A DNA stretch of 37,945 bases. It comes from an uncultured Clostridium sp. (lineage in GTDB: Bacteria; Bacillota; Clostridia; Oscillospirales; CAG-272). This document shows positions 13,817 through 31,702 of the stretch, piece by piece. The number at the start of each line of letters is the position of its first letter. The first letter of the stretch is position 1. The translations under genes were made by a program, and so were the position numbers. The DNA lies in the NCBI GenBank assembly GCA_964501175.1, contig CAZCRV010000001.1, forward strand, positions 1 to 37,945, given 5' to 3'. The notes under the pieces are model-generated. The model was not told where the DNA came from and searched no databases. It worked only from the letters and a program-made list of their open reading frames with translations.

Positions 13817-13829
13817 ACATCAAGCCGAA

Positions 13830-13866
13830 AGGGCTGCGCCGAGTTGCTTGGCGCAGCCCTATTTTG
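13830..13866 (+). terminator. intrinsic terminator
   Basis: GGGCTGCGCC (13831-13840) pairs with GGCGCAGCCC (13850-13859), a 10-bp stem, then TATTTT. Confidence 0.7.
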
Positions 13867-13910
13867 CATTGGTTGCCAATCAGCGCAACAGACGATTTGG
13901 GGGTTCAATC

Positions 13911-13939
13911 TTGACATATCTATCCTCTTGTGCTAAAAT
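13911..13939 (+). promoter_or_regulatory. sigma-A type promoter for the aminotransferase gene
   Basis: TTGACA (13911-13916), 17-nt spacer, TAAAAT (13934-13939). Confidence 0.6.
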
Positions 13940-13971
13940 AATGGGTGTTTGTTTGTCGGGAGGTGTGTGAC

Positions 13972-14820: not shown

Positions 14821-14827
14821 ATACAGG

Positions 14828-14857
14828 AAAACGGCGGGAAATCCCGCCGTTTCTTTG
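14828..14857 (+). terminator. intrinsic terminator
   Basis: AAACGGCGGG ... CCCGCCGTTT followed by CTTTG. Confidence 0.65.
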
Positions 14858-14905
14858 TAAATCAAAAATCACCAATTTTGACACCGATTCTCAATCAGCG
14901 TGATA

Positions 14906-14934
14906 TTGCGTTTTTATTTTGCATTTGCTATACT
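14906..14934 (+). promoter_or_regulatory. candidate sigma-A promoter for the second XRE regulator
   Basis: TTGCGT (14906-14911), 17-nt spacer, TATACT (14929-14934). An alternative TTGACA (14877-14882)-17-TGATAT lies just upstream. Confidence 0.5.
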
Positions 14935-14983
14935 ATAGTCGAAGGGGCCGCTTCAAATCTGTTTTGAAAGGTGAATTTTATTG

Positions 14984-16108
14984 ATGAAACTGAATTTTTC
15001 GGAAAATCTTAAAAAGCTCCGCAAGCAAAAGGAGATCACGCAGGAGGCGCTCGCTGATGCACTGGGTGTGTCGGGGCAGTCTGTCTCGCGCTGGGAGATT
15101 GGCATTTGTTACCCCGATTTGGAGCTTTTGCCCTCAATTGCCAATTATTTTGGCGTGAGCGTGGACAGCCTGCTTTCCAATGATACGACTTCCAAGCAAA
15201 AAGAGCACGAGGCGTTCTATCCGACGCTTGACAGTATTTCGGACGGTGCAGAACGCATCGAATTTATCAGGGAATATTGCCGCAAGTATCCCGAAAACGA
15301 TGAATATGCCTACGTTTTGGTGCAGGATATCAAGGATTACGCTGCCGCTGACGAGACAAAACTGCGCAAATACATGCCGCTGGTGGATAAGATGGTGCCA
15401 AGGCTGTTGGAGACCCGCTATCGCAACGCCACCATTCAGGTCATGGTATCTATTTGTGATGAAAAGGATCTGCAGTCCTGGCTGAGCATGACTCCTTACT
15501 CGGGATGGAGCAGACGCTACTGCTTGATCGCGCGCGCCATGGCACATGGCGACTGGGAGCAGGTGCACGTGCAACAGGGCTTGGAAATGTTGGAGAGCAT
15601 GGCAGATCAGTTGGACCGTCGCTATCCCGATCAGTTAGGACCGCAGGGAAAGGTGCAGTTCCACCGTGAGGTGCTTGCCTACATTCGTGCCTTGGGCGGA
15701 GGGATCGTGCCCGACGGCTGGAAGATGTTCTACGCTTATAAGCAGTTGGTTATGTCGGCCTGCCTGTTTGGCTGCGGTGAGAGTGAGCAGGGATGGGAGA
15801 ATTTCCGCGAGGCGGTCGCTATGTACCGCGAAGCGCATGCGCTGCCTGATGCCTATCTCAGCATTGGTGGCAAGCTGTTTTCGGACTTGAAGGCAAGCAA
15901 GGATTGGAATTATGCCATTGACGGTAAGGGCAAGAAGCACAAGTTGTTTGCCATGGTAAATCTGTCCCGCTATAATGCCGTGTACGTCTGTGACCTCTTG
16001 GAAAATCCCAGATGGGCGTGGTTTGACAGCGTCAGAGATACGCCCGAGTACCGTGAAGCCCTTGCCTGGGTCAAGCAAAAGGTGCAGGAGCAAAGGGATG
16101 AAGATTGA
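14984..16108 (+). CDS. XRE-family HTH transcriptional regulator with a ~300-aa helical C-terminal domain
   Basis: The N-terminus LRKQKEITQEALADALGVSGQSVSRWEIGICYPDLELLPSIANYFGVSVDSLL is paralogous to the HTH of the 714-aa protein. The rest is predicted helical. Confidence 0.75.
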   Translation: MKLNFSENLKKLRKQKEITQEALADALGVSGQSVSRWEIGICYPDLELLPSIANYFGVSVDSLLSNDTTSKQKEHEAFYPTLDSISDGAERIEFIREYCRKYPENDEYAYVLVQDIKDYAAADETKLRKYMPLVDKMVPRLLETRYRNATIQVMVSICDEKDLQSWLSMTPYSGWSRRYCLIARAMAHGDWEQVHVQQGLEMLESMADQLDRRYPDQLGPQGKVQFHREVLAYIRALGGGIVPDGWKMFYAYKQLVMSACLFGCGESEQGWENFREAVAMYREAHALPDAYLSIGGKLFSDLKASKDWNYAIDGKGKKHKLFAMVNLSRYNAVYVCDLLENPRWAWFDSVRDTPEYREALAWVKQKVQEQRDED

Positions 16109-16163
16109 CGCATAATGAAAGGGGAGCAAACTGTTATATAAAAATTTCGTTCCCCCTTATAAC

Positions 16164-16194
16164 AAAAGCAGAAGTCTTGTGACTTCTGCTTTTC
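16164..16194. terminator. bidirectional intrinsic terminator between convergent genes
   Basis: AGCAGAAGTC (16167-16176) pairs with GACTTCTGCT (16181-16190), loop TTGT, flanked by an A-run and a T-run. Confidence 0.7.
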
Positions 16195-16222
16195 TGAATT
16201 CTTTGCTAATTTGTACAGTTGC

Positions 16223-17858: not shown

Positions 17859-17929
17859 CGGGAGGCGAAACGCCTCCCCTACGTTCATTTATGCAAAACA
17901 GATTTGTAGGGGAGGCGTTTCGCCTCCCG
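17859..17929. repeat. inverted pair of 25-nt GC-rich palindromic units (REP-like)
   Basis: CGGGAGGCGAAACGCCTCCCCTACG (17859-17883) is the exact reverse complement of CGTAGGGGAGGCGTTTCGCCTCCCG. The second unit, TGTAGGGGAGGCGTTTCGCCTCCCG (17905-17929), matches that reverse complement at every position except its first base. Each unit is itself a hairpin. Confidence 0.7.
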
Positions 17930-17935
17930 TTTTTT
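17905..17935 (+). terminator. intrinsic terminator for the YwaF-like gene (second unit of the pair)
   Basis: GGGAGGCG-TTT-CGCCTCCC followed by GTTTTTT. Confidence 0.65.
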
Positions 17936-18428
17936 ATGAAAACAATATCATCGAAAAATAGGTCACGGTCTGCGGGCCGTTGTTGTAGCGCAGGCCGCAG
18001 GCACGGGAAAGCGCGCCCGCGTCAACGCCGCAGGCCTCCATGGAGCGGTGCACGCGCTCGGGAAAGCGGCAGGGCGCGTCGGGATAGGTGCAGGCCTTGC
18101 AAAGGCTGCAGCCGCCCGCGCTGTAAAGCAGGTGAGGAATGCCCTGTGCCCGCAGCGCATCGGCCAGCGCACGGTCAAGCTGCTTGTGCAGCACGCCCGA
18201 CTGCTGAATTCCCTCGAAATCAAAGTCATCGTCTAAAGTGTGCTTGGTGGTGAACACCAGCGTGTGCGCATAAGAGCGGCACTCGTCGCGCAATTGCTCC
18301 CATTCGCCCACACCGGGCGGGCAGGTCCAGGTCTTGCCGTAAAGCCCGCAGCGATTGGAGGCGCACATCTCGCGCACGCGCGCGTCAAACGGCACGTCAC
18401 ACGGATCAAGCCATGCAAACTCGTGCAC
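17934..18428 (-). CDS. DUF2284-family predicted metal-binding protein; the start codon is problematic
   Basis: Cys-rich blocks VREMCASNRCGLYGKTWTCPP and AGGCSLCKACTYPDAPC. The first canonical start is GTG 18428, which has no RBS, yet the frame stays open 34 more codons upstream (see findings). Confidence 0.6.
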   Translation of the reverse strand: MHEFAWLDPCDVPFDARVREMCASNRCGLYGKTWTCPPGVGEWEQLRDECRSYAHTLVFTTKHTLDDDFDFEGIQQSGVLHKQLDRALADALRAQGIPHLLYSAGGCSLCKACTYPDAPCRFPERVHRSMEACGVDAGALSRACGLRYNNGPQTVTYFSMILFS

Positions 18429-18518
18429 GGCAAAAGGGAGAGATGGGGCGGATAACAGTTGTTCTAAAAATTCTTTTTGGATATCAATTCTCCGTGAAAA
18501 TACAGAATCATGATGCTT

Positions 18519-18593
18519 TGTAGGGGCGATTCATGAATCGCCCGAATCAAATCAATCCCTATGGCGCGGGCGATTCGTGAATCGCCCCTACGG
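18519..18593. repeat. second inverted pair of GC-rich palindromic units (REP-like)
   Basis: TGTAGGGGCGATTCATGAATCGCCCG (18519-18544) and CGGGCGATTCGTGAATCGCCCCTACGG (18567-18593). Each holds a ~20-nt palindrome, and the two units are inverted copies differing at one position. Confidence 0.7.
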
Positions 18594-18595
18594 AA

Positions 18596-20113
18596 TCAAT
18601 TTTCCGGAAACATCATGTTTTCCATAAAAGATTGACTCCACACCGCGTTGGTGCTCAGCTCCAGCGTCTTGGCATGTGCGGCATCTTTGCCCAACGCGTC
18701 AAGGAGTGCCGGATGGGTCAGAATGCGTACGCAGCCACCCAAGGCCGCATTGCCAACGCTTTGCGTGCGCGTCTTGAAGGCTTCGGGCAAAAGGCCGATG
18801 GCAATGGCCGAATCCACGTTCATGTAGTAGCCAAGGCCGCCCGCAAGGTAAACGTGCGCCAGATCGTCGGGGGAGATGCCTGCGTGCGCGCAAAGCGCAT
18901 CTACACCTGCGCGAATGGCACTCTTGGAAAGCTGAAAGGCACGGACGTCTGCCTGCGTAAGGGCAAGCGGCGTGCCGTTTTGCGTGGTGGCGTAGATAAA
19001 TTGGTCGCCGTCCGTAAAAGCGCCCGTTTCGTCAATGATATCAGCCTCGTAAAGCGCACGGACAAGATCGATCAGACCGCTGCCGCAAATGCCGCGCGCG
19101 GGCGCGTCGCCTACCGTGGAGCAGATCGGGCGGCCGGATTGCATGCGAAACGCGCAAACCGCGCCCGCAACACCGCCCATACCGGTGGCAATGCCTGCGC
19201 CCTCCATGGCGGGGCCTGCCGCAGCCGAGGTGGCGTACAGAGCAGATCCGCGCGCCTTTCCCGTAAACAGAATGATTTCACCGTTGGTTCCAATGTCAAT
19301 CAGCAGCGTGGGCTGCTCGGAGTCGGTCAGATTCACGTGCAGCATGCCTGCCGTCAGATCTCCACCCACAAAGGCGGAAATGCTTGGCAACAGGGTCAGC
19401 GAGCCTGCCGGCAGACCAAGCTGCGCACCGGGTATGGTTTTGGCTTCTGTAAAGGCTGGGGTGAAGGGATAAGCGCCTATGCCTGTGGGAGAAATGCCCG
19501 CAAAAATATGCAGCATGGTGGGGTTGCCCGCCACGGTCATGCGCGCAGCCTTCTTGTCACCAAGCAGCTGCGCAAGCATTTCGCGGATTTTGTCAAGCAG
19601 CGCACTTTGCATTTGCGCAAGCGCCTCGGGTCGGCGCATGACGGCTTCAATGCGGCTGATCACGTCCGCACCGAACGAGGCCTGCGGATTGAGTGCTGAG
19701 GCGGTGTCAAGCACGTTGCCGTTTCGTGTGTCCACCAAGGCGGCCGCCAGCGTGGTGGAGCCGATATCCAGCGCGATACCCAAGAATTGTTCCGGGATGT
19801 CGGAGCTTTGCTTGTCGGTCTGCTTGCCGAAATCGGTCAGGCCGTCGCCCTCGGGTACAGGCAGCAGCACAAATGCATTGCATGCAGCGTAAACGCGGCA
19901 TGCATAATAGTAGCCGTCCTTGTCCGGTACTGCCGGGCGGGTGCATTCGGGATTTTCAAACAGCACGCCCGAGGCAAGCCGTATGCGGCATTTGCCGCAC
20001 TTGCCCTTGCCGCCGCAATCGGCGGTGATAGGATACCCTGCACGTGCCAAGTATGCGGCCACGTTCTGACCGCAGGCAGAGGCGCCGAGTCGGATGCGAA
20101 CTTCTTTGCTCAT
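18596..20113 (-). CDS. reductive activator of corrinoid enzymes (RACE/RamA/AcsV-type: [2Fe-2S] ferredoxin domain + ASKHA ATPase)
   Basis: N-terminal CGGKGKCGKC cluster motif. ASKHA phosphate motifs ALDIGSTTLA and LIDIGTNGE. ATGA overlap with the upstream UroD-family gene. Confidence 0.8.
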   Translation of the reverse strand: MSKEVRIRLGASACGQNVAAYLARAGYPITADCGGKGKCGKCRIRLASGVLFENPECTRPAVPDKDGYYYACRVYAACNAFVLLPVPEGDGLTDFGKQTDKQSSDIPEQFLGIALDIGSTTLAAALVDTRNGNVLDTASALNPQASFGADVISRIEAVMRRPEALAQMQSALLDKIREMLAQLLGDKKAARMTVAGNPTMLHIFAGISPTGIGAYPFTPAFTEAKTIPGAQLGLPAGSLTLLPSISAFVGGDLTAGMLHVNLTDSEQPTLLIDIGTNGEIILFTGKARGSALYATSAAAGPAMEGAGIATGMGGVAGAVCAFRMQSGRPICSTVGDAPARGICGSGLIDLVRALYEADIIDETGAFTDGDQFIYATTQNGTPLALTQADVRAFQLSKSAIRAGVDALCAHAGISPDDLAHVYLAGGLGYYMNVDSAIAIGLLPEAFKTRTQSVGNAALGGCVRILTHPALLDALGKDAAHAKTLELSTNAVWSQSFMENMMFPEN

Positions 20114-21228
20114 ATGCGTATCTCTTTGATCTTTTCTGCGTAGTATTGCACCAGCTCAAACTTGGTGCCGGGCATGAGTCTGTGGTCGGGGCAGGGGATA
20201 AAGCCGCCGAGTGCCGAAAGGCGGGTCAATCGCTCCAGCTCGCGGTCAACGGCTGCCTTGTCAAGGCGCAGGACCGTCTTGTCCATACCGCCCACGCCAA
20301 GCATTCCGCGGCCGTACCTTTGACGTGCGGCCTCGAATTGATCTCCCCAAGTACCGATCTCGATGGGGAACATGACGTTGACGCCGTTTTCGTACCAGGT
20401 CGGCAGCAGCTTGTCGGTCACGCCGTCGCAATCAAGAGAAATGATGTCAATGCCGTAAGCGTGGCAGAGGTCATTTCTCTTTTTGTAGTGCTTGGCGCAA
20501 AGCTCGTCAAAGATCGCAGGAGAGAGCAGGGGACCTGAGTTAAAGCAAATGTCCTCCCAGTAGTGCGCGAAATCGAATTTCGCACCGGTTTTGAGAATCT
20601 CCGCGGCGCACTTGTATTGCATTTCGGCATAAGTGTCCACCAGGTCGGCAAACAGCTCTTCGTCCTCGTCGTACATGAGGTAACTCATGCCTACCACAGA
20701 GACCATGGAGCGGATGTTGCCAAGCACCGAACCAAGGTGCAGACCGATGGGCACGTCGGGGTCGCGCGTGTCGTTGAAAGTTTTGAAATATTCGTAGTTG
20801 ACTCGCTCGGGGCAGAATTGCATTTTCGGGCGATAAAGCGTTTCGAACGCTTCTCTGTCCTTGAGCAGATAATCGTCCTCCGAGGGGATTGAGGTTACGC
20901 CGGGCTTTACGCGCTCGATCAGGCCGTCGTGGTTTTGCACGCGCTGCGTGCCGTCGGGCAACACCTCGAGCACCTTGCGCTCAAACGTGGGGAGCAGACC
21001 GTTGTATGCACCCACGGTGCGATACCAGTTGAAATCCCAGCCAAGGATTTTATCAAGCTCGCTGTCGGCAGCGTTGCCGTCCGCCCAGGAGAGTGCAAGC
21101 TCGTGTGAGATTTGGCCCTGTTCTGCCCATTCGAGCAAAAGCTCGGGCCAGTAGCCAAAGTGTACGGCGGGCATGCGGTCTGCGGGGCGATAGTGCAAAA
21201 TATTCATGGCTCTTTCGCGGTTGGTCAT
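20110..21228 (-). CDS. uroporphyrinogen-decarboxylase (UroD)-superfamily protein, candidate substrate:corrinoid methyltransferase (paralog 3)
   Basis: 372 aa with a TIM-barrel-type pattern. It has SLDCDG and IPCPDHRL where MtaA-type enzymes have zinc ligands. 4-nt overlaps at both ends. Confidence 0.7.
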   Translation of the reverse strand: MTNRERAMNILHYRPADRMPAVHFGYWPELLLEWAEQGQISHELALSWADGNAADSELDKILGWDFNWYRTVGAYNGLLPTFERKVLEVLPDGTQRVQNHDGLIERVKPGVTSIPSEDDYLLKDREAFETLYRPKMQFCPERVNYEYFKTFNDTRDPDVPIGLHLGSVLGNIRSMVSVVGMSYLMYDEDEELFADLVDTYAEMQYKCAAEILKTGAKFDFAHYWEDICFNSGPLLSPAIFDELCAKHYKKRNDLCHAYGIDIISLDCDGVTDKLLPTWYENGVNVMFPIEIGTWGDQFEAARQRYGRGMLGVGGMDKTVLRLDKAAVDRELERLTRLSALGGFIPCPDHRLMPGTKFELVQYYAEKIKEIRI

Positions 21229-22289
21229 GCCTCTCTCCTTTCTTGCGCTGCAAATACGGGGCAGGGGGTGATATTGCCATGTGCGTGCGTGACGCGTGCG
21301 GCGTATTCCTTCAAAAGGGTTACGTAGATCTTGTAGTTTTCGATCGAGACGTCGGGCGGGGTCTGGTGATCCACCGAGGCAATCACCTTGCCGCGCTGCA
21401 GCGAGGGCAAAATGCGTTCAAATTCCGCGCGCATGGCGTCCTTTCCAAATTTCATGCACATTTTATCAAAATGACCGAGAAAGGCCATGTCCGGCTGCTT
21501 GTCAAGATAGGTGGAAACGTCCACGCCCGCCTGTCTTTCCAAAGGGAACATGCCGTCAGCACCCACCTCTGCGTACCAATCCACCGCCATGGTAATGTCA
21601 CCGTCCGAATCGATAAACACGGGAATGCCGTGCTTGTGGATGACGGGAATGATCTTGCGGTAAAAGGGCGCTAAAAACTCGTCAAAGCAGCATTTAGAGA
21701 TCATGGGGCCCGAGTTGTAGCTCATATCCTCGGCAAAGCTCATAAAGTCAAAGTGGAACTGCGAGAAGACATAGTCAAACAGCTCGACCAGCCAGTCGGA
21801 GTAGTCCTCGCACATCTGCTTGTAAAGCTCGGGATAATCGTAAAAGCTGTAAAGGTGATTTTCAATGCCGAACAGCACGCGCGGATACCAGAAAAAGCCC
21901 TCCACCGTAAAAAAGTGCAAGGTGTCTCCGCGCTCGTGCGTGGCGCGCAGCCAATCAAAGTGCGCTGCGGGGATGACCGTACGCACGTCGGGGAACAGCG
22001 TCGGGCGAATGCGAGCCCAATCGTCCTCGTCCTCCATGCAGCCGATTCCCGAGCCGGGAATGACCGTGGGGGAGGCGGGTGTAAAGTAAGATACGCCCGT
22101 CTGCAGGCAGCGGTCAAGGCCGAAATAGCCTTGAATATCGTCCACGCTTGCGCACTTTGCGGGCAATCCCTCCGCGTGCCATCGGCCAAGCGTCAGATGC
22201 CACCAAGGGGCCCATTCGATCATGGGCATGCGGTCAATTTCCTTGCCCGAAAGGTAGCGGGCAAAGCGTTCGGACGCGGTCATACTCAC
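21225..22289 (-). CDS. UroD-superfamily protein, candidate substrate:corrinoid methyltransferase (paralog 2)
   Basis: 354 aa. It has FIDSDGD and SVDHQTPP at the positions of the zinc ligands. 4-nt overlaps at both ends. Confidence 0.7.
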   Translation of the reverse strand: MSMTASERFARYLSGKEIDRMPMIEWAPWWHLTLGRWHAEGLPAKCASVDDIQGYFGLDRCLQTGVSYFTPASPTVIPGSGIGCMEDEDDWARIRPTLFPDVRTVIPAAHFDWLRATHERGDTLHFFTVEGFFWYPRVLFGIENHLYSFYDYPELYKQMCEDYSDWLVELFDYVFSQFHFDFMSFAEDMSYNSGPMISKCCFDEFLAPFYRKIIPVIHKHGIPVFIDSDGDITMAVDWYAEVGADGMFPLERQAGVDVSTYLDKQPDMAFLGHFDKMCMKFGKDAMRAEFERILPSLQRGKVIASVDHQTPPDVSIENYKIYVTLLKEYAARVTHAHGNITPCPVFAAQERREA

Positions 22290-23287
22290 GAAAACGCCTC
22301 CTTTGCCGCTGCGAAAAACGCGTCAATATTCTCCCATTTGGCTGCGGGCGGGATGTCACATCCCGAGGAGAGCACAAAGTGGGGGTATTGCTTGCATTCG
22401 GAAATCAAAGCTTGCACAGCCGCGCGTATGCTCTCGGGTGTGCCGCCCAAAAACTCGCCCGCGGGCGAAATATTGCCGCAAACGGGTCGGTCCGTGGGCA
22501 TTTTGGCAAGCATATCGGCAAGGCTGATCGCGTCGCCAAAGTGATAAGCCGCAGCACCGTTTGCGTAAAGCGAGTCGGTCATGAGCGGCACGTTGGGGCC
22601 GCAGTTGTGGTAGATGACGATAAAGGAATCGTCCTGCACGGCGTCAATGATCCGCTTAACGAAAGGTGCGGAGAATTCTTTCTCCTGCGCGGGAGAGAGC
22701 AGACCCGCAAGCGGTTCTGCCATGACGATCCCGTCAAGCCCCGCCTCTTTGTAGGCAAGGGCATAGTTGATCAGAAAGGGCGTGACCTTTTCCAAGGCTG
22801 CGTAAACGAAATCCTCGTCCGCAATGCAGTTGACCAGCGCCTCGGTGACGTCCATCAGTCGGCCGACCAGCGAAAAAGGACCGATCATGCCAGCAAGCAC
22901 CGGGCGATCGGTTATTTGCGCCTTGGCATCGGCAGCGGCCTTGATATAAAGGCCCGTGCGTGCCGCGCCCACGGCGGGAATATCCAGCGCGCGCGCCTCG
23001 TCCTCATCCGAGATCAGAATGTTTGTCACGGTGGGCACCTCATCCTGCGAGCAGGCCAGCGTGCAGCCAAAGGCCTCAGCCTCGACCGAGAGATCCATCA
23101 TGCAAACGGCGGCTGCGGCGGGCGTGCGCGCAGCAACTGCTAAAATGCCCTCGGTCTGCGTGGCGGCGTCGTGCGTAATGGTGTACACGTCAGCCCCTGT
23201 CAGCTGAGCCGAGGGGAAGGAAAGAAGGGGAAGCGGGTGGCGACTTCCCGGAAGAGCAGCCGCCCATGCTTTCATATCGTATTTCAT
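22286..23287 (-). CDS. MtaA/CmuA-type methylcobamide methyltransferase (UroD superfamily, zinc ligands present)
   Basis: GGAG lies 6 nt before ATG 23287 (the ORF track starts at TTG 23299). Blocks MDLSVEAEAFG, GPFSLVGRL, IVIYHNCG (H-x-C), LSSGCDIPP. Confidence 0.8.
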   Translation of the reverse strand: MKYDMKAWAAALPGSRHPLPLLSFPSAQLTGADVYTITHDAATQTEGILAVAARTPAAAAVCMMDLSVEAEAFGCTLACSQDEVPTVTNILISDEDEARALDIPAVGAARTGLYIKAAADAKAQITDRPVLAGMIGPFSLVGRLMDVTEALVNCIADEDFVYAALEKVTPFLINYALAYKEAGLDGIVMAEPLAGLLSPAQEKEFSAPFVKRIIDAVQDDSFIVIYHNCGPNVPLMTDSLYANGAAAYHFGDAISLADMLAKMPTDRPVCGNISPAGEFLGGTPESIRAAVQALISECKQYPHFVLSSGCDIPPAAKWENIDAFFAAAKEAFS

Positions 23288-23299
23288 AAATTTCTCCAA

Positions 23300-23950
23300 T
23301 TATCCGCGCATTTCAGCAATCAGACGCTTGGCCTCGCGGGCAGCACTTGCAGCGTCCAGCGTGTAGCAGTCCGCACCGATCTCGTCGGCAAATTCCTGCG
23401 TAATGGGCGCACCGCCCACCATCACGCGCACCTTGTCGCGCAGACCCGCTGTGCTCAGCGCGTCAATGACCTCCTTCTGGCCGTACATGGTGGTGGTCAG
23501 AAGTGCGGAAAGGCACACGAGCTGCACGTCGTTGTCGCGCACGGTGTTCACGATGACCTGCGGGTCCACGTCCACGCCAAGGTCAATGCAGGCAATGCCT
23601 TGACCCTCGATCATCATCTTGACCAAGTTCTTACCAATGTCGTGCATGTCGCCCTTGACCGTGCAGATGACTGCCGTGCCGAGCGGCTCGATGCCTGCAC
23701 CCGACAGTGCGGGCTTTAAGATCTTGAGTCCTGCGTTCATGGCGCGTGCGGCAACCAGTACCTCGGGCACAAAGACCTCGTTTTGACGGAACTTGTCACC
23801 GATGACGTTCATGCCGCTGACAAGGCCCTCATTAAGAATGGTTTCGGGGGAGATATTCAACTCAAGAGCTTGGGTGACCAGCACTGCGACGTCCTTGGCC
23901 TTGCCACGCTGCAGCTTTTCGGAAATTTCTTGCAAAAGTGCTGTTTCCAT
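23300..23950 (-). CDS. corrinoid (cobalamin-binding) protein of the MtaC/MtbC/MttC type
   Basis: N-terminal helical cap followed by a Rossmann B12-binding domain with GDMHDIGKNLV (DxHxxG), SALLTTTM (SxL) and MVGGAPI (GG). AAGGAGAAGG lies before the ATG. Confidence 0.85.
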   Translation of the reverse strand: METALLQEISEKLQRGKAKDVAVLVTQALELNISPETILNEGLVSGMNVIGDKFRQNEVFVPEVLVAARAMNAGLKILKPALSGAGIEPLGTAVICTVKGDMHDIGKNLVKMMIEGQGIACIDLGVDVDPQVIVNTVRDNDVQLVCLSALLTTTMYGQKEVIDALSTAGLRDKVRVMVGGAPITQEFADEIGADCYTLDAASAAREAKRLIAEMRG

Positions 23951-23976
23951 AACCTTCTCCTTATACTTTATCGGAT

Positions 23977-25494
23977 TTATTTATGTGTGGGCTTGAATAA
24001 CAGAATAAAGACGATCATGACCATCATGGCAAGAATTGCCATGGGGGGAATGAGATCGCGCAGTGAGGCTTTTTCTTCGACCGGCTCGGTTTCCTCGGAA
24101 GCTTTGGTGGTGGCCGAGGAAACCGGAGCGGTGGTCGCGGCTGCCGTGGTTACAGGCTCGAGCTTTTTGACAGAAAAGCGGTATTCCGCCTGGCCCAGCC
24201 ATTCTCCCGTGGCAAAATCTCTGCCACGTACCAGGACGGCGTCCTCGTAAATTGTCACGTAGTAGCCCTGGCTGCCTGCGATTTCATAGCCGCCTGTGCC
24301 GTCATCGGTCCAGAGATATGCGGCAGACGCCGTGTTGAAGATCCTGGAGCCCTCCTGCAGCTTGAACATGGTTCCGGTTTCGTTCATGGATCTGTGCGAG
24401 TGGCCGTTGAACATGACGACGTTGGAGTAGCGGTCAAGAAGACTTTGTACTTCCAAGTAGTTGTATACATCGCCGCAGCTGTGCGGATCGGGCGTGCCTG
24501 AAACGGTATTGGGCAGCGGCTCGTGCAAAAAGACGAACACGGGCTTATCCGGATTTGCGGATGAGAGTATGGCGGAAAGCCAGGAAAGCTGCGCAGAGGA
24601 AATCACGGCCTTGCCGTCCTGATACGAGTCCGCACCAAGCACGATCATGGTGCAAGTCCCCAGGTTGAACGAGTAGTAAGGGGTGGTCAATGCGCTCCCG
24701 CTCGGATGCTTGACGTATTTGAAAAATCTTTGCAGATTGGCACTATATGCGCTCTCGTCGTAGAGATAGGTGCCCTTGGTAAGGAATTCATGCGTGCCGA
24801 TTGCGCGGTACAAGGGCGGGAGACCCGTTTCTTGGGCGTAAAGCTGCGCAAGAAGCTCGTAGTATTCGTCCTCGGCCGCGTCCACGGCAGAGCCGACGAT
24901 AAAAATGCCTGCGGCATTGGGCGAATTTGCTTTGATATCCTTGAGCATGGCGGCAAAGCTTGCCTGTGTTTGCGTATCTCTGCCTACGTGCGTATCGGAT
25001 ATTACCACGAATTCGGCCAGCGTTTTACCTGCTTTGGGAAACGTGAGATTGCTGAAGTCGGTAGCAGCCATAAACGCGGTACTCTCTCCATAGCTTTCGC
25101 TATAGGTATATACCACAACTGATTTTGCCTTTTCGGGAACGGTAAAGGTTTCGTTGATCGATATCAGTACGTAATCAGAGGTGATCTTTCCCGTATAGAA
25201 AGCTGAATAGCCGGGCAGACGGTTGCCGTTCGCATCGCTCCAGTAAAGGGCATAAGAGGTTGCGTTGGAGTCCTCGGGCAGCGTCATGTAAAAGGTGCCT
25301 GCGCCGTATCCCTGCGCGCCGTCGATCAGTACAAAGGAGGCCGTATCGGGCAGCGTGGTCGTACCGGTGGTATCCTCGGTTTGCTCCTCTGTGCTGCCTT
25401 GTGTATCACCTTGCTCGGACGAGGCCGAGCAAAACAGCGTCGACGAACCGAGAAGCAGGCAGAAGCACAGCAAAATGGTCAGAATTCTTTTCAT
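23977..25494 (-). CDS. secreted, C-terminally membrane-anchored calcineurin-like metallophosphoesterase
   Basis: GAGGA lies 7 nt before ATG 25494. Signal peptide MKRILTILLCFCLLLGSSTLFCSA. Blocks ISDTHVG, GTHE, FLHEPL, NGHSHR. A Thr/Ala/Glu linker precedes the hydrophobic tail PPMAILAMMVMIVFILLFKPTHK. Confidence 0.75.
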   Translation of the reverse strand: MKRILTILLCFCLLLGSSTLFCSASSEQGDTQGSTEEQTEDTTGTTTLPDTASFVLIDGAQGYGAGTFYMTLPEDSNATSYALYWSDANGNRLPGYSAFYTGKITSDYVLISINETFTVPEKAKSVVVYTYSESYGESTAFMAATDFSNLTFPKAGKTLAEFVVISDTHVGRDTQTQASFAAMLKDIKANSPNAAGIFIVGSAVDAAEDEYYELLAQLYAQETGLPPLYRAIGTHEFLTKGTYLYDESAYSANLQRFFKYVKHPSGSALTTPYYSFNLGTCTMIVLGADSYQDGKAVISSAQLSWLSAILSSANPDKPVFVFLHEPLPNTVSGTPDPHSCGDVYNYLEVQSLLDRYSNVVMFNGHSHRSMNETGTMFKLQEGSRIFNTASAAYLWTDDGTGGYEIAGSQGYYVTIYEDAVLVRGRDFATGEWLGQAEYRFSVKKLEPVTTAAATTAPVSSATTKASEETEPVEEKASLRDLIPPMAILAMMVMIVFILLFKPTHK

Positions 25495-25511
25495 AAAAAT
25501 ATCCTCGGGAA

Positions 25512-26963
25512 TCAATATCTTTGCCAGTGGTAAACGCCCTTTTCATCCTTTTTGTCAATGTCTCTGAAAACGTAATAGATGGGCTTGGGGGTATCGGGCA
25601 CGCTGCTTTCGGGTCTGCGGCGCCAAAGGCCGAGGTTCAGGCCGAATTCGCCCTTGTTATCCCCGTGCGCGTGCAGAATAAAGCTGTCGATTTCGGGAAT
25701 CTCCATCACCTTGCGGTAAGCCTTGCCGTAGGCCATGGCCTGCAGCACCTCGCTGGTGGCGGTGTTGTGCGAGTTAAAGCCCTGCTCTGAGAGAATGATG
25801 CGGCGGCGCTGTCCTTGGAACAGGCATTCCTGTTTGTAAAGGAACTGAGCCAACACCTCAAGGTTCTTGAAGGTGATGCGGTAGGTGTCCTCGTCTTCGG
25901 TGGCGGTGGTGTCGTTCCAGAAATCGGGGAAGTTGAGGTTTTCGGGGTAGGGGTGGTGTGCCACGTTCCAACCGATCTCGCCCTCGGTCTTGCCAAGGCG
26001 AACCAGCTCCTCGAGCACGAATTTCGAGCCGTAGAAGCGGTTGGGATTTGCGCTGAAGTTGGCGCCGGTCCAGAAGTGGTCAAGCGAAATGTAGGTGCGC
26101 GCGCCTGACCAGATAGCGGTGGAAACCTGCCAGCAAAGGCGCAGAGAGGTGGTGTAGTCGTAAACGTATTGCGCAAGCGTTGCCTCGCCCATGTTGCACC
26201 ATTCAAAGCCCGAGTTGACCTCGTTACCCACGATGTGACCAACGGCACGGCCAAAGGGTGCGCCGTCCAGCGTATAGCGGTCGGTCAGAAAGGCGACCCA
26301 GGCCGAGTAGTAGCGCACGGCGCGCTCGTTATGCAGATTGAATGCAGAAATTCTGCCGCCCTCGCAAAAGCCGGGGTGCTTGATGATCTCCCAAAGGTCG
26401 TCGGGCGTTTGCACGCCGCCCCAGGTGTGGGAGTTAAGCAGAATGTAGGTAATGATCACGCCGGCCTCGGTCAGCTCGCGCACGCGTGCGTCGTTGTGCT
26501 CGACCACCTTTTTGCGAAAATAGAAGGTCTCACCGTCAAATTCGTAAGGGATGGTGTCGCCCTCGACGGGCTCAACCCACAAAAAAGAGCCTAAGTTGAC
26601 GTTGAGCGCCGCGTGCTTGACGCCTAAGTTGATGGCGTCGTGCACCATGGTGACCTGCAAGCCCTTTTTGCTCTCGGTCACGGGGTAGGGCGCGTCGCGC
26701 AGGGATGAACCCATGTCCTCAACGTAGCAAGCGCCCTCGCAATCCGCACCGTCGGTGCTTGTGCGATAGTAAAGGAATCTGCCGTCGCAGCCGCCTTGGT
26801 GGATGGGCAAGGTAAAGCTGCCGTTTTTGGCCGTAGCGGTGGCGGTAAAGATGGGTGTGTCAAGGCAGAATGCGCTGCGATAAGCGGTGACCTGCACGCC
26901 CCCGTCGAAGTCTGTATCAAAGCGGATCTGGTCGTTGTCCGTGACGATGCGTAAAATCTTCAT
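25512..26963 (-). CDS. cytoplasmic glycoside-hydrolase-like TIM-barrel protein (DUF5722-like)
   Basis: GGGAGG lies 7 nt before the ATG. There is no signal peptide. An N-terminal beta-rich ~110 aa is followed by a segment with alternating strand/helix pattern (GVKHAALNV, ITYILLNSHTW, IVGNEVN, ILSEQGF). IVGNEVN resembles the clan GH-A acid/base NE motif. The family name is from memory and is moderately uncertain. Confidence 0.45.
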   Translation of the reverse strand: MKILRIVTDNDQIRFDTDFDGGVQVTAYRSAFCLDTPIFTATATAKNGSFTLPIHQGGCDGRFLYYRTSTDGADCEGACYVEDMGSSLRDAPYPVTESKKGLQVTMVHDAINLGVKHAALNVNLGSFLWVEPVEGDTIPYEFDGETFYFRKKVVEHNDARVRELTEAGVIITYILLNSHTWGGVQTPDDLWEIIKHPGFCEGGRISAFNLHNERAVRYYSAWVAFLTDRYTLDGAPFGRAVGHIVGNEVNSGFEWCNMGEATLAQYVYDYTTSLRLCWQVSTAIWSGARTYISLDHFWTGANFSANPNRFYGSKFVLEELVRLGKTEGEIGWNVAHHPYPENLNFPDFWNDTTATEDEDTYRITFKNLEVLAQFLYKQECLFQGQRRRIILSEQGFNSHNTATSEVLQAMAYGKAYRKVMEIPEIDSFILHAHGDNKGEFGLNLGLWRRRPESSVPDTPKPIYYVFRDIDKKDEKGVYHWQRY

Positions 26964-26996
26964 AATGCGGCCTCCCGATGTTTATGGATTATCTCC

Positions 26997-27025
26997 ATTA
27001 TATCAAATAACTGCGCCAAAGGCAA
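26997..27025 (-). promoter_or_regulatory. sigma-A promoter of the long minus-strand operon
   Basis: On the minus strand: TTGCCT (27025-27020), 17-nt spacer, TATAAT (27002-26997). A ~30-nt leader runs to the GGGAGG RBS. Confidence 0.6.
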
Positions 27026-27057: not shown

Positions 27058-27090
27058 CAAAAAGTGCCCTGCGGCATTTTGCCGCAGGGC
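27058..27090 (-). terminator. intrinsic terminator of the lipoprotein-metzincin pair
   Basis: GCCCTGCGGC (27066-27075) pairs with GCCGCAGGGC (27081-27090). On the minus strand it is followed by ACTTTTTG. Confidence 0.65.
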
Positions 27091-27110: not shown

Positions 27111-28667
27111 TTACTCGGTTTGGGTTTGGTCATTAACGTCGTAGAATTGCAACGTGCCATTTTCGTACGCCTCAAGGTCGGCTTGAACCAATACTACAAT
27201 ACCGTTTGGCAAGATATAACTGCCGTTTGCCGTTCGCATATTTGTGATGCCATACGCTATATTGGCGTTGTCTTTGGTTAAATCCAACCTTGCTCTACAT
27301 CCAAGACAGTTTGCATATCGTCCGTTTTCAATCTCATCATACAGTACGCTATGTGCTTGGGTTTCTGTTTTTCCACATGTGCAGGCTCTTCGGTGTTGGT
27401 TTTCGTTCAAATATAAATAAAGACCAAATGTATGGCTTGTCTCAGCATATCCACACGTCAAGCAACCGTGAATCGTCATATCGTGTTCTTCCAAAAAGGT
27501 ATATCCTAACCCGGGAACAATGTTTGTATATTTGTGGTAGGTGCTGTTAACCGATGTGACCGTATAGTTTTGGGGAACTCTTTCATCAAAAGGTGCTACA
27601 TATCTGCAATATTTGCACTTGTAATAATCCCGATCACCGTAACTTGCTACAGCCATCATGTTGCCACTTGACAATTCATGATTGTTAACACATAGGCCAT
27701 ACAAATAAAAATCATCACCATAAGTATAACCATCAAAAGAGTCTATCCATTTCACTCCGTTACAAATTGAGCATATCATCTTGTGCTTTCCGTCTTTCAT
27801 TTCTTTATATAACCATTTATGGTCATTATCATTATGGAAACCTCTTATGATTGCTACACCTGCAATATCTTTGTAAGTAATGTTCTGTTCGCAAGTTTCA
27901 GGTGTAGCACCATATCCCATAAGCAATTCTTGATGATGATAATGCTCTGATCCTTCTGCTCCACAACGCTCCTCTATATCATATAATCCCAATACATGTC
28001 CGAATTCGTGCGCACCGGCTTTCTCTCTCGCTGCATTCACATAATCAGCAGTATAATATGACCCATGCTCATAGAAATGTTCTATATTTACTAGCATTTT
28101 CCACTCGAAATAATGCTGATGATGATATAAATTAACGGTTTCTATGTATTCGCTTGATCCAACAGAATAAGTTCCTGCCAATGCTCCTAAGTTCAGGGCG
28201 GGATATATGATCAAATTGTGATCTTCTGCCGTCCCTTCCACTATGTTAATAATTCTGTTTTTTGTTATGCTTTCATCTTCTCCGTATGAATAAAAATAGA
28301 CATTATTCCATTTTTTCATGCTTTGCGCATATGTTTCCTTTATTTCATTAGCTGTCTCTGACGATATGCCTCCGGAAGTCCATGTATACTGTCCGTCTTC
28401 AGATTCGGGTGCAAAATAGTATTTGACAGTAACTAATTCGGTAGCCATGTGAGATGACCAGCCTCCACTTTTTAAAATATACCAGGCTTCATCAAGTCCA
28501 TCCGCGGGAAGTTCTGCTCCGTTTTCGGGAGAAGAATATACACAATCATCGTATATTACATCTAAAAAAGCATCATGTGCGTATGTGGCAGTTGCAGCGC
28601 ATAACATGCAACTCAATATCATAAATAAACTCATAAAGCTTAAGCAAAATTTTTTAACCCCTTTCAT
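27111..28667 (-). CDS. secreted zinc metalloprotease, snapalysin-like metzincin, with a Cys-pair-rich C-terminal region
   Basis: AAAGGAGA lies 6 nt before ATG 28667. Signal peptide ...MILSCMLCAATATYA. HEFGHVLGLYD (HExxHxxGxxD) is encoded at 27978-28010, followed by C...ELLMGYG (Met-turn-like). The C-terminal 220 aa carry CSIC, CKYC, CLTC, CTC and CLGC. Confidence 0.7.
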   Translation of the reverse strand: MKGVKKFCLSFMSLFMILSCMLCAATATYAHDAFLDVIYDDCVYSSPENGAELPADGLDEAWYILKSGGWSSHMATELVTVKYYFAPESEDGQYTWTSGGISSETANEIKETYAQSMKKWNNVYFYSYGEDESITKNRIINIVEGTAEDHNLIIYPALNLGALAGTYSVGSSEYIETVNLYHHQHYFEWKMLVNIEHFYEHGSYYTADYVNAAREKAGAHEFGHVLGLYDIEERCGAEGSEHYHHQELLMGYGATPETCEQNITYKDIAGVAIIRGFHNDNDHKWLYKEMKDGKHKMICSICNGVKWIDSFDGYTYGDDFYLYGLCVNNHELSSGNMMAVASYGDRDYYKCKYCRYVAPFDERVPQNYTVTSVNSTYHKYTNIVPGLGYTFLEEHDMTIHGCLTCGYAETSHTFGLYLYLNENQHRRACTCGKTETQAHSVLYDEIENGRYANCLGCRARLDLTKDNANIAYGITNMRTANGSYILPNGIVVLVQADLEAYENGTLQFYDVNDQTQTE

Positions 28668-28669
28668 TT

Positions 28670-29710
28670 TCAATCTCCTTTCGTTTTTATAATCTCTGCA
28701 ATATCTTCTGCTTTCAATAAGCCATATTCGTTTATGTTACCGTATCGATCTGTCCAGTTGTATTTCCCTGTGATCATAAAACGCAAGGCATCATCGTAAT
28801 ATTTCCCAAAATATTCTGGCAAAAAACCGTTCTCGCTTGTGTTGCCATCCGGTGTGTGCGTGCTCGTGTGTATTTTCACATAATATGCGTTATCTAACTC
28901 CATAAGAGTCAAAACGACGGATTTATGGTAATAACAATCGATGCTATGATAAATAATAGCCGGATTATTACATTGATGATACTTTGAAACAGTATTATCC
29001 GAATAAAAATAAAGAAAAGCTTCTGCAAATTCCAAAGGTTCTGAAGTATTTACACCGTCAACGAATTCTGGCGAATAAATCCGGTAGTGCTCCATATCTG
29101 CGCTTACATCTTTTTCATCCAACATATTCACGCAAGACAGAGTTTTGTTTATTTGAAAGCTTACTACGAAATCCTTGCCGTCATAACTATCCTTTAGTTC
29201 TTGCTCGTCCTCAAACTTGACCCATGTATAACTATCAATACAGCATTGATCGTAAAATTCATATTCATGCCCACTATCTGAATAGGCGCAAACATAGTAA
29301 TACGCATTCGGATTAAATTCTACAAATAATACCTTGCCGCTTTCTTTGGCTGAATCAAATTTGTTTTCGTATGTGTTCTCCAACCCGGAAAATTCATACT
29401 TTAAATGACCGAGATACGTCTTCAAAGTATGGATCAAATAATCAAATTCTTTTTCCGGGTCATACGTATCATCGGCTAACGTGATCGGTTGAGAGGTGTC
29501 TTCCGGTAAGGGATCGGATGTTTCTTGTACTACTTCTGTATGGATATCGGTTGCTTGGGAGTTTTCAACTGTATCATCGGTATTGCTTGGAGCAAGTTCA
29601 TTTTGGCTTTGTGCCTCAAAGCTAACATTGGACAAGTCGCAAGCCGATAAGAGCAGGCAGGATGCCAGCAGAAAAAGCAGGGGGAGGAGTGCTTTTTGTG
29701 AGTATTTCAT
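28670..29710 (-). CDS. lipoprotein of unknown function
   Basis: AAAGGAG lies 8 nt before ATG 29710 (the ORF track starts 33 codons upstream at 29809). Lipobox LLLSAC. An acidic Ser/Thr/Asp/Glu-rich linker precedes a Tyr/Cys-rich globular part. Its stop is 2 nt from the metzincin start. Confidence 0.65.
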   Translation of the reverse strand: MKYSQKALLPLLFLLASCLLLSACDLSNVSFEAQSQNELAPSNTDDTVENSQATDIHTEVVQETSDPLPEDTSQPITLADDTYDPEKEFDYLIHTLKTYLGHLKYEFSGLENTYENKFDSAKESGKVLFVEFNPNAYYYVCAYSDSGHEYEFYDQCCIDSYTWVKFEDEQELKDSYDGKDFVVSFQINKTLSCVNMLDEKDVSADMEHYRIYSPEFVDGVNTSEPLEFAEAFLYFYSDNTVSKYHQCNNPAIIYHSIDCYYHKSVVLTLMELDNAYYVKIHTSTHTPDGNTSENGFLPEYFGKYYDDALRFMITGKYNWTDRYGNINEYGLLKAEDIAEIIKTKGD

Positions 29711-29735
29711 GATATCCGCTCCTTTCGTTTTTTTA

Positions 29736-29764
29736 ATGATATCATAGTATATGCGATCCGTCAA
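29736..29764 (-). promoter_or_regulatory. candidate promoter of the islet operon
   Basis: On the minus strand: TTGACG (29764-29759), 17-nt spacer, TATCAT (29741-29736). Confidence 0.45.
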
Positions 29765-29898
29765 GTAGCTGCACGTAATTTGCAAGTGGTGCAATATCAT
29801 AATTAACAATTTTTTGTGAACATTCTACACAATTCTCGCACAAGTATACAAAAGTGTGATACAATGAACCCGAGAAATGACGGAAAGGCGGCATTGAT

Positions 29899-31701: not shown

Positions 31702-31702
31702 T

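Follow-up and report, generated by a model that had tools for sequence, protein, structure and literature searches.

A probable corrinoid methyl-transfer system with two divergent UroD-fold proteins in an uncultured Clostridia bacterium of the herbivore gut

We analyzed a stretch of 37,945 nucleotides from an uncultured Clostridium sp. (contig CAZCRV010000001.1 of assembly GCA_964501175.1; called the window in the following), which contains on its minus strand a row of genes for a corrinoid protein, three UroD-family proteins and a reductive activase next to genes for a glycosidase-like and a phosphoesterase-fold protein. The row was mapped with a listing of open reading frames (ORFs) and with Pfam and NCBIfam scans. 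It probably represents one transcription unit of eight genes, g1 to g8, of an Oscillospiraceae-like Clostridia bacterium from the gut of a herbivore. The genes and signals of the unit are, from upstream to downstream:

27066 to 27090, no strand assigned: GC-rich 11-bp hairpin with a T-run, upstream of the operon, at the end of inserted low-GC genes.
26997 to 27025, minus strand: sigma-70-type promoter-like site TTGCCT-17-TATAAT with a TGn extension; 10 of 12 matches, the best match of the region.
25512 to 26963, minus strand: g1, DUF5722 protein of 483 amino acids without a signal peptide (Pfam 1e-107).
23977 to 25494, minus strand: g2, calcineurin-like phosphoesterase-fold protein (Pfam Metallophos 4.5e-8); likely ATG at 25494, ORF open to 25515.
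23300 to 23950, minus strand: g3, corrinoid (B12-binding) methyl-carrier protein of 216 amino acids (Pfam B12-binding_2 and B12-binding).
22286 to 23287, minus strand: g4, MtaA-like UroD-family methyltransferase with the zinc ligands His-x-Cys…Cys (Pfam URO-D 6e-48); ORF open to 23299.
21225 to 22289, minus strand: g5, divergent UroD-fold paralog of 354 amino acids, presumed methyltransferase I (MT I; Pfam URO-D 7.5e-14).
20110 to 21228, minus strand: g6, second divergent UroD-fold paralog of 372 amino acids, presumed second MT I (Pfam URO-D 6.9e-10).
18596 to 20113, minus strand: g7, RACo-type ATP-dependent reductive activase with an N-terminal [2Fe-2S] ferredoxin domain (Fer2, Raco_middle and RACo_C_ter, ASKHA).
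18520 to 18591, no strand assigned: palindromic insert of about 72 nt (GTAGGGG-hairpin, 24 nt, hairpin-CCCCTAC) without a T-run, within the 167-nt spacer between g7 and g8.
17934 to 18428, minus strand: g8, DUF2284, Cys-rich predicted metal-binding protein (Pfam 5.9e-46).
17860 to 17878, minus strand: terminator after g8, a hairpin with an 8-bp stem (7 GC pairs) and a T-run, with the tail GCTTTGTTAT.

The gene row, the promoter, the junctions and the family assignments are genuine. The ORF listing returned seven minus-strand ORFs in the same direction at the coordinates given in a preliminary description of this DNA, with the intergenic gaps of 17, 26 and 12 nt (assuming ATG starts at 25494 and 23287) and with 4-nt overlaps at g4/g5 (GTGA), g5/g6 (ATGA) and g6/g7 (ATGA). 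The description had proposed a seven-gene operon; all seven genes stand, but an eighth gene, the DUF2284 gene g8, extends the unit past position 18596. The unit runs on to the terminator at 17878-17860. An alignment of 7 related loci revealed that the promoter hexamers, the TG and the downstream ribosome-binding site GGGAGG are invariant, whereas the flanks have diverged. The proposed promoter-like site is therefore backed by conservation and is more than a match to the consensus. The hairpin at 27066-27090 terminates the inserted low-GC genes and thus marks the upstream boundary of the unit; it is also present in the related loci L010 and L011, both of which carry inserted genes at the same spot.

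A promoter scan found no internal promoter-like site inside g1 or g2, and the 26-nt gap between g2 and g3 contains only a ribosome-binding site. Due to these two features and the conserved single promoter, co-transcription of g1 and g2 with the downstream genes, as had been suggested, is likely. A functional coupling of g1 and g2 to these genes does not follow from co-transcription. An Rfam scan detected no cobalamin, S-adenosylmethionine or T-box leader in the window or in five related loci; the sole match was an unrelated lysine riboswitch in L024.

The Pfam scans confirmed the combination of corrinoid protein, UroD-type methyltransferases and ATP-dependent activase, including the presence of three paralogs of the UroD superfamily. 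The carrier protein g3 matches its two B12-binding families with 6.5e-21 and 3e-24 and the NCBIfam model for methyltransferase cognate corrinoid proteins with 5e-60, and the motifs DMHDIG, SAL and GG in its translation correspond to the DxHxxG, SxL and GG signature read earlier. The assignment of g7 as a [2Fe-2S] and ASKHA activase is likewise borne out by the Fer2 and RACo domains; the Cys pattern is that of a plant-type [2Fe-2S] domain, and the AcsV-type NCBIfam model matches with 5e-85, under its cut-off, with the RamA model also below cut-off. Among the window ORFs scanned, which reach about 18 kb to one side and 11 kb to the other side of the cluster, no member of the MttB, MtaB, MtmB, pterin-binding or MtrH families was found, in agreement with the absence of an MttB/MtaB/MtmB-type methyltransferase already noted. 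Use of methanol by an MtaABC-type system was rejected, as the window contains no MtaB.

Protein g4 is the conventional member of the three UroD paralogs. Its best NCBIfam matches are MtaA/CmuA-type models (1e-31 to 1e-37, all under the cut-offs), and in a comparison with MtaA from M. mazei (4ay7; 4e-15) 'YHNCG' lies opposite 'LHICG' and 'SGCDI' opposite 'PGCGI', so that all three zinc ligands are kept. Judged from this intact His-Cys-Cys site and from a MetY-like gene that lies beside the module in L017 and near it in L024, g4 is probably the methyltransferase II (MT II) that moves the methyl group from the methyl-corrinoid to an acceptor, and the acceptor is probably a thiol. In two loci (L031 4317-5675, L035 4433-5791) the MtaA-like protein of the module carries an additional thioredoxin-fold domain at its C-terminus; the fusion protein of 452 amino acids matches URO-D (7e-52) and Thioredoxin_3, and a radical-SAM-like gene lies nearby.

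The two other paralogs are different. Protein g5 contains the invariant motifs EDMSYNxGP, D227-S-D229-G-D and D307-H308-QTPPD and g6 the motifs LDCDG … PDH, and in the alignment both carry Asp-x-Asp…Asp-His at the positions of His-x-Cys…Cys. The earlier notion of two divergent paralogs holds with respect to the divergence, but 'Zn-less' is too simple a term, since an invariant carboxylate/His set replaces the thiolate ligands. The proteins g5 and g6 are sister families (23% identity across the full length, E 7e-20; hhalign probability 98.8%), whereas the hhalign probability of g5 with g4 is 3.5% and g6 shows no similarity to g4. An AlphaFold2 (AF2) model of g5 (mean predicted local distance difference test score, pLDDT, 86) contains a UroD-type barrel with template modeling (TM) scores of 0.68 to human UROD and 0.62 to MtaA; its top structural matches are decarboxylases. 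No meaningful sequence relatives of g5 or g6 were found in the PDB, and a profile search with g5 also returned none. The g5 protein of the window itself gave no entry in the assembly index, possibly on account of its GTG start.

A remote relation could be detected to Dhaf4610, the MT I for aryl methyl ethers from D. hafniense. Its sequence was rebuilt from the optically recognised text of the supplement of PMC9930637 and may contain small errors. The g5 profile matched it with an hhalign probability of 94% (E 8.5e-8, 151 columns, 24% identity) and g6 with a BLASTP E-value of 3e-10 (27% over 162 amino acids). Dhaf4610 is the sole characterised MT I in this comparison. Both proteins thus seem MT I-like and nearer to Dhaf4610 than to MtaA or g4, but far from nested with it. 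Tight nesting in a clade of aryl MT I enzymes, an outcome that the preliminary description had named as speaking against its idea, was not found at 24-27% identity over about half the length. According to Kountz & Balskus (PMC10418091), S-methyltransferases of the UroD family keep His-Cys-Cys, and O-methyltransferases swap the Cys ligands for carboxylates or non-ligands. By this rule g4 would be of the S-type and g5 and g6 of the O-type. From the carboxylate/His site, the relation to Dhaf4610 and the occurrence of each gene under its own AraC regulator elsewhere we infer that g5 and g6 act on O-methyl donors, as alternative MT I enzymes.

In the protein collection more than 5000 sequences belong to the g5 family. 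The best 120 homologs (68-88% identity) are all proteins of metagenome-assembled genomes (MAGs) of Clostridia, Ruminococcaceae or Oscillospiraceae. For a scan with one genome per species, 592 relatives were collected, the best 80 were kept and the eight window proteins were mapped by local tblastn; the scan was seeded on the motifs DHQTPPDV and EDMSYNxGP and is biased to homologs retaining both. The close relatives all originate from herbivore gut metagenomes, for example of sheep colon, yak and water deer. Only in the closest clade, at a g5 identity of at least 82%, were all of g1 to g8 present together. This clade comprises about five species-level genomes (L008, a sheep colon MAG with 94%, L009, L010, L011 and L019/L012) together with the metagenome contigs L088 and L089, which have the same row and the same flanks, ADP-ribosylglycohydrolase and CotH on one side and TMEM164 and SGNH on the other. 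In relatives with a g5 identity of 67-79% the core g3 to g8 occurs without g1 and g2, and the upstream genes vary from locus to locus. Ten loci (L005, L013, L016, L017, L021, L024, L026, L027, L038 and L061) contain the six-gene core, or a version without g6, and lack g1 and g2. The linkage of the DUF5722 and phosphoesterase genes to the module holds only in the closest clade; the preliminary description had named a linkage that is not conserved in related genomes as speaking against its idea, and this is largely what was seen. The conserved unit consists of six genes, encoding the corrinoid protein g3, g4, g5, g6, the activase g7 and the DUF2284 protein g8, and g1 and g2 are additions between promoter and core in one narrow clade. 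The g5 gene is closely packed with those for the corrinoid protein, g4 and the activase in at least 15 independent loci, with frequent stop/start overlaps.

The genes beside the core differ. Upstream of it lie genes for tRNA ligases in L013, a sulfatase gene in L027, and two Gfo/Idh/MocA and two xylose-isomerase-like genes in L024. In L017 a MetY-like (Cys_Met_Meta_PP) and a MetA (HTS) gene are located directly upstream of the core (5350-7576) and a GH106-like rhamnosidase gene downstream (13246-16218). A protein encoded just downstream of the core in L024 (12244-13554) falls in the same BLAST cluster as the MetY-like protein of L017 and was placed by this cluster alone. An O-acetylhomoserine sulfhydrylase-like gene thus accompanies the module in two independent loci, and these MetY/MetA-like neighbours hint at a link to methionine or thiol metabolism.

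Regulator genes form a further group of neighbours. An AraC-family protein fused to B12-binding_2 and B12-binding domains is encoded beside the module in L005 (6597-8168) and also in L006 and L007, and proteins with a PocR sensor and an AraC domain are found inside related clusters. PocR-AraC or AraC-B12 regulators lie upstream of the core in L026 (7676-8965), L061 (6293-7441) and L005, which suggests a control responding to corrinoid or substrate. Each of g5 and g6 can also sit apart under its own AraC-type regulator (L001, L031, L035, L061), a behavior expected of substrate-specific MT I modules. Homologs of g5 with 44-50% identity are found in Clostridia, Lentisphaerota, Verrucomicrobiota, Planctomycetota and Anaerolineae, and a divergent AraC regulator is frequently their neighbour. 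Among 218 neighbours of these distant homologs (90 immediate, 128 next-nearest) a Pfam census returned no B12-binding or RACo match and no enrichment of carbohydrate-active enzyme (CAZyme) families; the neighbours were heterogeneous (AraC 5, URO-D 4, SBP_bac_5 4, MFS 5) and gave no clue to the substrate.

The gene g8 had been overlooked in the preliminary description, but its distribution identifies it as a conserved member of the module. It adjoins or overlaps the activase gene in L005, L008-L010, L013, L016, L027, L038, L061 and L088, and in L008, L012 and L088 both genes overlap by the 4 nt ATGA. The palindromic insert at 18520-18591 is absent from these last three loci, and L010 has a different palindrome, GTAAGGG…CCCTAC, at the g7-g8 junction. 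In the window the first canonical start of g8 is a GTG at 18428 without a Shine-Dalgarno sequence. Upstream of it the frame is open (18429-18530) and encodes …IQKEFLEQLLSAPSLPFA…, which matches the N-terminus of the relatives; in a comparison of the N-termini the position of the relatives' ATG is an ATC here (18482-18480). In this strain g8 may use a non-canonical start codon or its expression may be poor. Only two incidental mentions of DUF2284 and nothing functional were found in the literature. The terminator at 17860-17878 has a mirror-image counterpart at 17910-17928, which belongs to the convergent TMEM164 gene. Palindrome units with GTAGGGG … CCCCTAC ends thus occur in two pairs (18520-18591 and 17860-17928), with about 23-24 nt between the units of each pair; one pair is located between g7 and g8, the other between g8 and TMEM164. 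They look like a small family of elements resembling repetitive extragenic palindromes (REP) or miniature inverted-repeat transposable elements (MITE).

We consider it probable, although by a good distance not certain, that the unit is a corrinoid methyl-transfer system without a tetrahydrofolate methyltransferase, which uses an O-methyl donor and a thiol-type MT II. In such a system the activase g7 would use ATP and its [2Fe-2S] domain to reduce the corrinoid cobalt of g3 to Co(I). One or both of g5 and g6 would act as substrate-specific MT I with an Asp-x-Asp…Asp-His site in place of a thiolate zinc site and would present the O-methyl donor, from which Co(I) would take the methyl group, leaving a free hydroxyl. 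The MT II g4 would then hand the methyl group to a soft nucleophile, for which sulfide, homocysteine or another thiol is the likeliest candidate, and g8 would serve as a conserved accessory metal or Fe-S protein. For the transfer of methoxy-derived methyl groups to sulfide there is a physiological precedent (Bak et al. 1992, as cited in PMC6486533). The window is best described as a hybrid variant in which O-type MT I-like enzymes are joined to an S-type MT II.

Several points weigh against this assignment. The MT I role of g5 and g6 is predicted from sequence, and the similarity to the one characterised MT I compared is remote, with 24-27% over about half the length. The acceptor of g4 is deduced from the zinc ligands alone. 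Most g5 homologs with 44-50% identity are standalone genes with neither a corrinoid protein nor an activase encoded within 10 kb, so that the g5 family might not be obligatorily corrinoid-linked. The scan for pterin-type methyltransferases covered the window, and such an enzyme could be encoded elsewhere in the genome. The expression of g8 is uncertain, as the gene lacks a canonical start here and is split from g7 by the palindromic insert.

The two genes in front of the core bear on the nature of the donor. The DUF5722 protein g1 had been described as a glycoside hydrolase (GH)-like TIM barrel without a signal peptide, and this agrees with our results. The AF2 model (pLDDT 81) consists of an N-terminal beta-sandwich and a (beta/alpha)8 barrel, for which Foldseek returned weak matches to GH1, GH2, GH5, GH39 and GH53 (TM 0.4-0.47). 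Invariant residues N247-E248 follow the strand 240-245, and an invariant E393 stands at the end of the strand 389-393; the strand numbering is taken from the AF2 model. In the model these residues fit the acid/base and nucleophile positions of clan GH-A, which is characterized by a barrel with Asn-Glu after strand 4 and Glu at the end of strand 7. The term 'GH-like' is therefore fair, and g1 looks like a glycosidase of clan GH-A. No defined glycoside hydrolase family matched g1, DUF5722 being the sole Pfam match, a sequence search of the PDB returned no meaningful relative, and no paper mentioning DUF5722 was found.

Homologs of DUF5722 fall from 75-92% identity straight to at most 58%. The distant homologs (50-58%) occur in three contexts: after SufC-SufD and before thioredoxin genes, after transketolase genes, and by CotH, where the gene is divergent from CotH and ADP-ribosylglycohydrolase and followed by nucleoside-salvage genes. 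In all three contexts no corrinoid genes were found beside them. In L090, L091 and L093 (52-58%) the DUF5722 gene, sometimes as a tandem pair, lies between SufC-SufD and ferredoxin-thioredoxin-reductase-like/thioredoxin genes, which is an odd yet conserved setting for a glycosidase-like protein. As DUF5722 is kept by CotH without corrinoid genes, its synteny with CotH is older than its junction with the corrinoid genes. In one lineage the corrinoid core and the phosphoesterase-fold gene were placed jointly downstream of DUF5722.

For g2 the preliminary description had proposed a surface metallophosphoesterase. Membership in the Metallophos family (34.2 bits, gathering cut-off 21.5), an N-terminal signal peptide and a C-terminal hydrophobic transmembrane anchor, both read from the translation, were found, but the catalytic motifs are degenerate. 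Compared with the full set DxH, GDxxD, GNH[DE], H and GHxH, the window protein has DTH, GSAVD, GTHE, H and GHSH. The motif GNH[DE] is missing in all 7 orthologs, three of the proteins (window, L008, L019) have GS for GD, and two (L010, L011) have lost DxH. With ortholog identities of 44-79% compared to 85-92% for g1, g2 is evolving at a far higher rate than its neighbours. It is doubtful that g2 works as a phosphoesterase at the surface, and the protein is probably not active.

The other neighbours in the window include helix-turn-helix regulators, TMEM164, CotH, ADP-ribosylglycohydrolase, HAD hydrolases, an aminotransferase, a bile-salt-hydrolase-like protein, an endonuclease/phosphatase-family protein and an SGNH esterase. 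Of the glycan-rich neighbourhood previously described, only the SGNH esterase could be recovered; a scan of all large window ORFs revealed neither a GH28-like nor a GH38 gene. A CotH-kinase-family protein with chitobiase-C/Fn3-associated domains and an ADP-ribosylglycohydrolase-family protein of 645 amino acids are encoded at 29899-33640. This pair is conserved, divergent from DUF5722, and is kept in L094, a relative without corrinoid genes. Between CotH and the operon promoter lies a low-GC island (27111-29809; GC 0.37-0.40 compared to about 0.55) with two co-directional genes for proteins of 520 and 379 amino acids, neither with a Pfam match, the smaller one lipoprotein-like. L008, L019 and L088 lack this island. 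Distant homologs of the 379-amino-acid gene (36-38%) are located at the same spot in L010 (two copies) and L011 and are followed by the same terminator hairpin, so that the site looks like a recurrent insertion hotspot.

With regard to the donor, the preliminary description had favored a methyl-ether sugar. This inference now appears unlikely, because the adjacency of the genes is confined to close relatives and the description of the neighbourhood as glycan-rich fails. In the most complete form of this explanation the whole row would be one pathway, in which a surface enzyme and a cytoplasmic glycosidase release a sugar such as 4-O-methyl-glucuronate from xylan, 2-O-methyl-fucose or -xylose from pectin or 6-O-methyl-galactose from red algae, and g5 and g6 demethylate it via the corrinoid protein; we give this form little credence. 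Equally small is the chance we assign to the broader proposal that the g5/g6 clade of more than 5000 sequences is an anaerobic route for the removal of sugar methyl ethers that passes the methyl group via the MtaA-like enzyme to a thiol and not to tetrahydrofolate. The GH-A-like barrel of g1 with both catalytic Glu positions conserved would suit such a pathway, as would the synteny of g1, g2 and core that about five species-level genomes keep despite the divergence of g2 to 44% identity; yet the linkage is absent at 67-79% g5 identity, DUF5722 at 50-58% identity has no corrinoid neighbours, and g2 is probably not an active phosphoesterase. Same-strand genes adjacent to the core in other loci encode a GH106-like rhamnosidase (L017), a sulfatase (L027) and Gfo/Idh/MocA and xylose-isomerase-like proteins (L024), but the unit itself contains no sugar transporter or sugar-catabolic gene and the window is not glycan-rich. 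Lentisphaerota, Verrucomicrobiota, Planctomycetota and Anaerolineae are known polysaccharide degraders, and their MAGs contain g5 homologs, but no CAZyme enrichment was seen among the 218 neighbours. Anaerobic sugar demethylation is acknowledged as unexplained (PMC12316285, 2025), whereas the sole characterised relative compared, Dhaf4610, acts on aryl methyl ethers. Methoxylated plant phenolic conjugates, such as glycosides of flavonoids, isoflavones, lignans or hydroxycinnamates, a rival of equal simplicity that the preliminary description did not discuss, explain the same facts at least as well as sugars, and as donors they are possible, though not to be expected with any confidence. Here the conjugate would be taken up, g1 would deglycosylate it and g5 and g6 would O-demethylate the aglycone, with the rhamnosidase, the sulfatase or the Gfo/Idh/MocA and isomerase-like enzymes replacing g1 in other lineages. 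Methoxylated phenolic glycosides are abundant in the herbivore gut, the source of all close relatives. The recurrence of differing de-conjugating enzymes beside the same core fits this idea, but the context evidence is as weak and non-conserved as for sugars, and Gfo/Idh/MocA and isomerase genes belong to generic sugar catabolism. Among characterised enzymes the guaiacol-type MT I of D. hafniense is nearest to g5 and g6, although the identity is low, and corrinoid O-demethylation of dietary aryl methyl ethers by gut bacteria is well documented (e.g. PMC9602652 and PMC12915777). A pterin-type MT II, which the characterised aryl O-demethylases have according to PMC13222342 and PMC10418091, is missing here.

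Two further explanations concern the chemistry of g5 and g6 themselves. The core could be an mlp gene cluster as described by Kountz & Balskus, in which all three UroD paralogs act on S- or Se-methyl groups in the salvage of methylated sulfur or selenium compounds. The His-Cys-Cys site of g4, the MetY- and MetA-like genes by the module in L017 and the MetY-like gene near that in L024 would agree with this, but type 1 clusters need Mlp2 and Mlp3 with an essentially invariant His-Cys-Cys, and the three Mlps of C. ljungdahlii are all detectable by BLAST with MtbA (E 3e-10 to 5e-60; PMC10418091). In contrast, g5 and g6 have Asp for His/Cys and no detectable similarity to MtaA, and the window contains no selenium or sulfur genes; we regard an mlp function as improbable. 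A type 1 mlp cluster was rejected on the zinc ligands and the similarity of g5 and g6. The other explanation is that g5 and g6 are not corrinoid methyltransferases at all and carry out other chemistry of the UroD fold, as decarboxylases or metal-dependent hydrolases or isomerases, beside a minimal methyl-thiol system of g3, g4 and g7. The decarboxylases among the top structural matches and the Asp/His-rich site, which could bind a catalytic metal, would be compatible with this, as would the absence of corrinoid protein and activase within 10 kb of most 44-50% homologs. Standalone MT I genes that share a carrier and an activase are, however, normal in organisms with many systems, and A. dehalogenans has 26 methyltransferase systems (PMC13222342). 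As g5 is also related to the bona fide MT I Dhaf4610 and is packed with corrinoid protein, g4 and activase in at least 15 independent loci, we judge a function outside methyl transfer to be very improbable.

The corrinoid methyl-transfer system with O-type MT I-like enzymes that we prefer is a module of known kind, in a variant without prior characterisation. One of the two closest kinds is the four-component O-demethylase (Odm and Vdm of A. dehalogenans, Dhaf4610-4612 of D. hafniense, MtvABC of Moorella, MtoABCD of Methermicoccus and the related CdmBCA for chloromethane). Shared with these are the small B12-binding carrier with DxHxxG (g3), the RACo/Ram-type activase (g7), the presence of one or more UroD-fold proteins that presumably act as MT I, here g5 and g6 with their remote relation to Dhaf4610, and the occurrence of several such paralogous genes per carrier. 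The O-demethylases have a pterin-binding MT II (PMC13222342), in place of which the MtaA-like His-Cys-Cys protein g4 is found here. Further differences are the separate clade of g5 and g6 with its own invariant motifs EDMSYNxGP, DSDGD and DHQTPPD and no PDB relative at the sequence level, DUF2284 as a fixed member, and the hosts, which are non-model gut Clostridia and not known acetogens. The other closest kind is the mlp cluster of anaerobic Firmicutes including gut organisms (Kountz & Balskus 2023, bioRxiv, PMC10418091). The locus agrees with the operational definition of a type 1 cluster, which excludes a tetrahydrofolate methylase within 20 kb (none was found in the flanks of about 18 kb and 11 kb), and it shares a g4 like a soluble coenzyme M (CoM) methyltransferase with His-Cys-Cys and the occasional methionine-biosynthesis neighbours. 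Only g4 qualifies, however; by zinc ligands and by similarity to MtaA, with ClMlp1-3 left out, the defining pair Mlp2/Mlp3 is not present, and a selenium or sulfur context is missing in the window. The methanogen system MtaABC with RamA has in common with the unit the similarity of g4 to MtaA (4ay7, E 4e-15), with all zinc ligands kept, and of g3 to MtaC-type carriers, but MtaB is lacking and the activase, with its [2Fe-2S] domain, belongs to the bacterial RACo type. The host would not be expected to metabolise CoM. The P450 that demethylates 6-O-methyl-galactose in aerobic marine bacteria (Reisky et al. 2018; PMC6292453) resembles the unit only in the hypothetical task of taking a methyl ether off a sugar. 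The two have neither protein family nor cofactor nor oxygen requirement in common.

Which methylated compounds an anaerobe can use is decided by its corrinoid methyl-transfer systems, and in gut bacteria such systems alter the activity of dietary compounds and drugs. The core described here is a widespread, unnamed version of such a system, with two O-type MT I-like enzymes and a thiol-type MT II and without a tetrahydrofolate methyltransferase. That a few close relatives have a glycosidase-like gene next to it in the operon does not amount to evidence of a common pathway. The pairing of an O-type MT I with a thiol MT II would explain how non-acetogenic gut Clostridia could dispose of methoxy methyl groups, as methanethiol or methionine. 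The g5/g6 family provides clonable candidates for sugar demethylation without oxygen (PMC12316285) and for the genes of methyl transfer from methoxy groups to sulfide.

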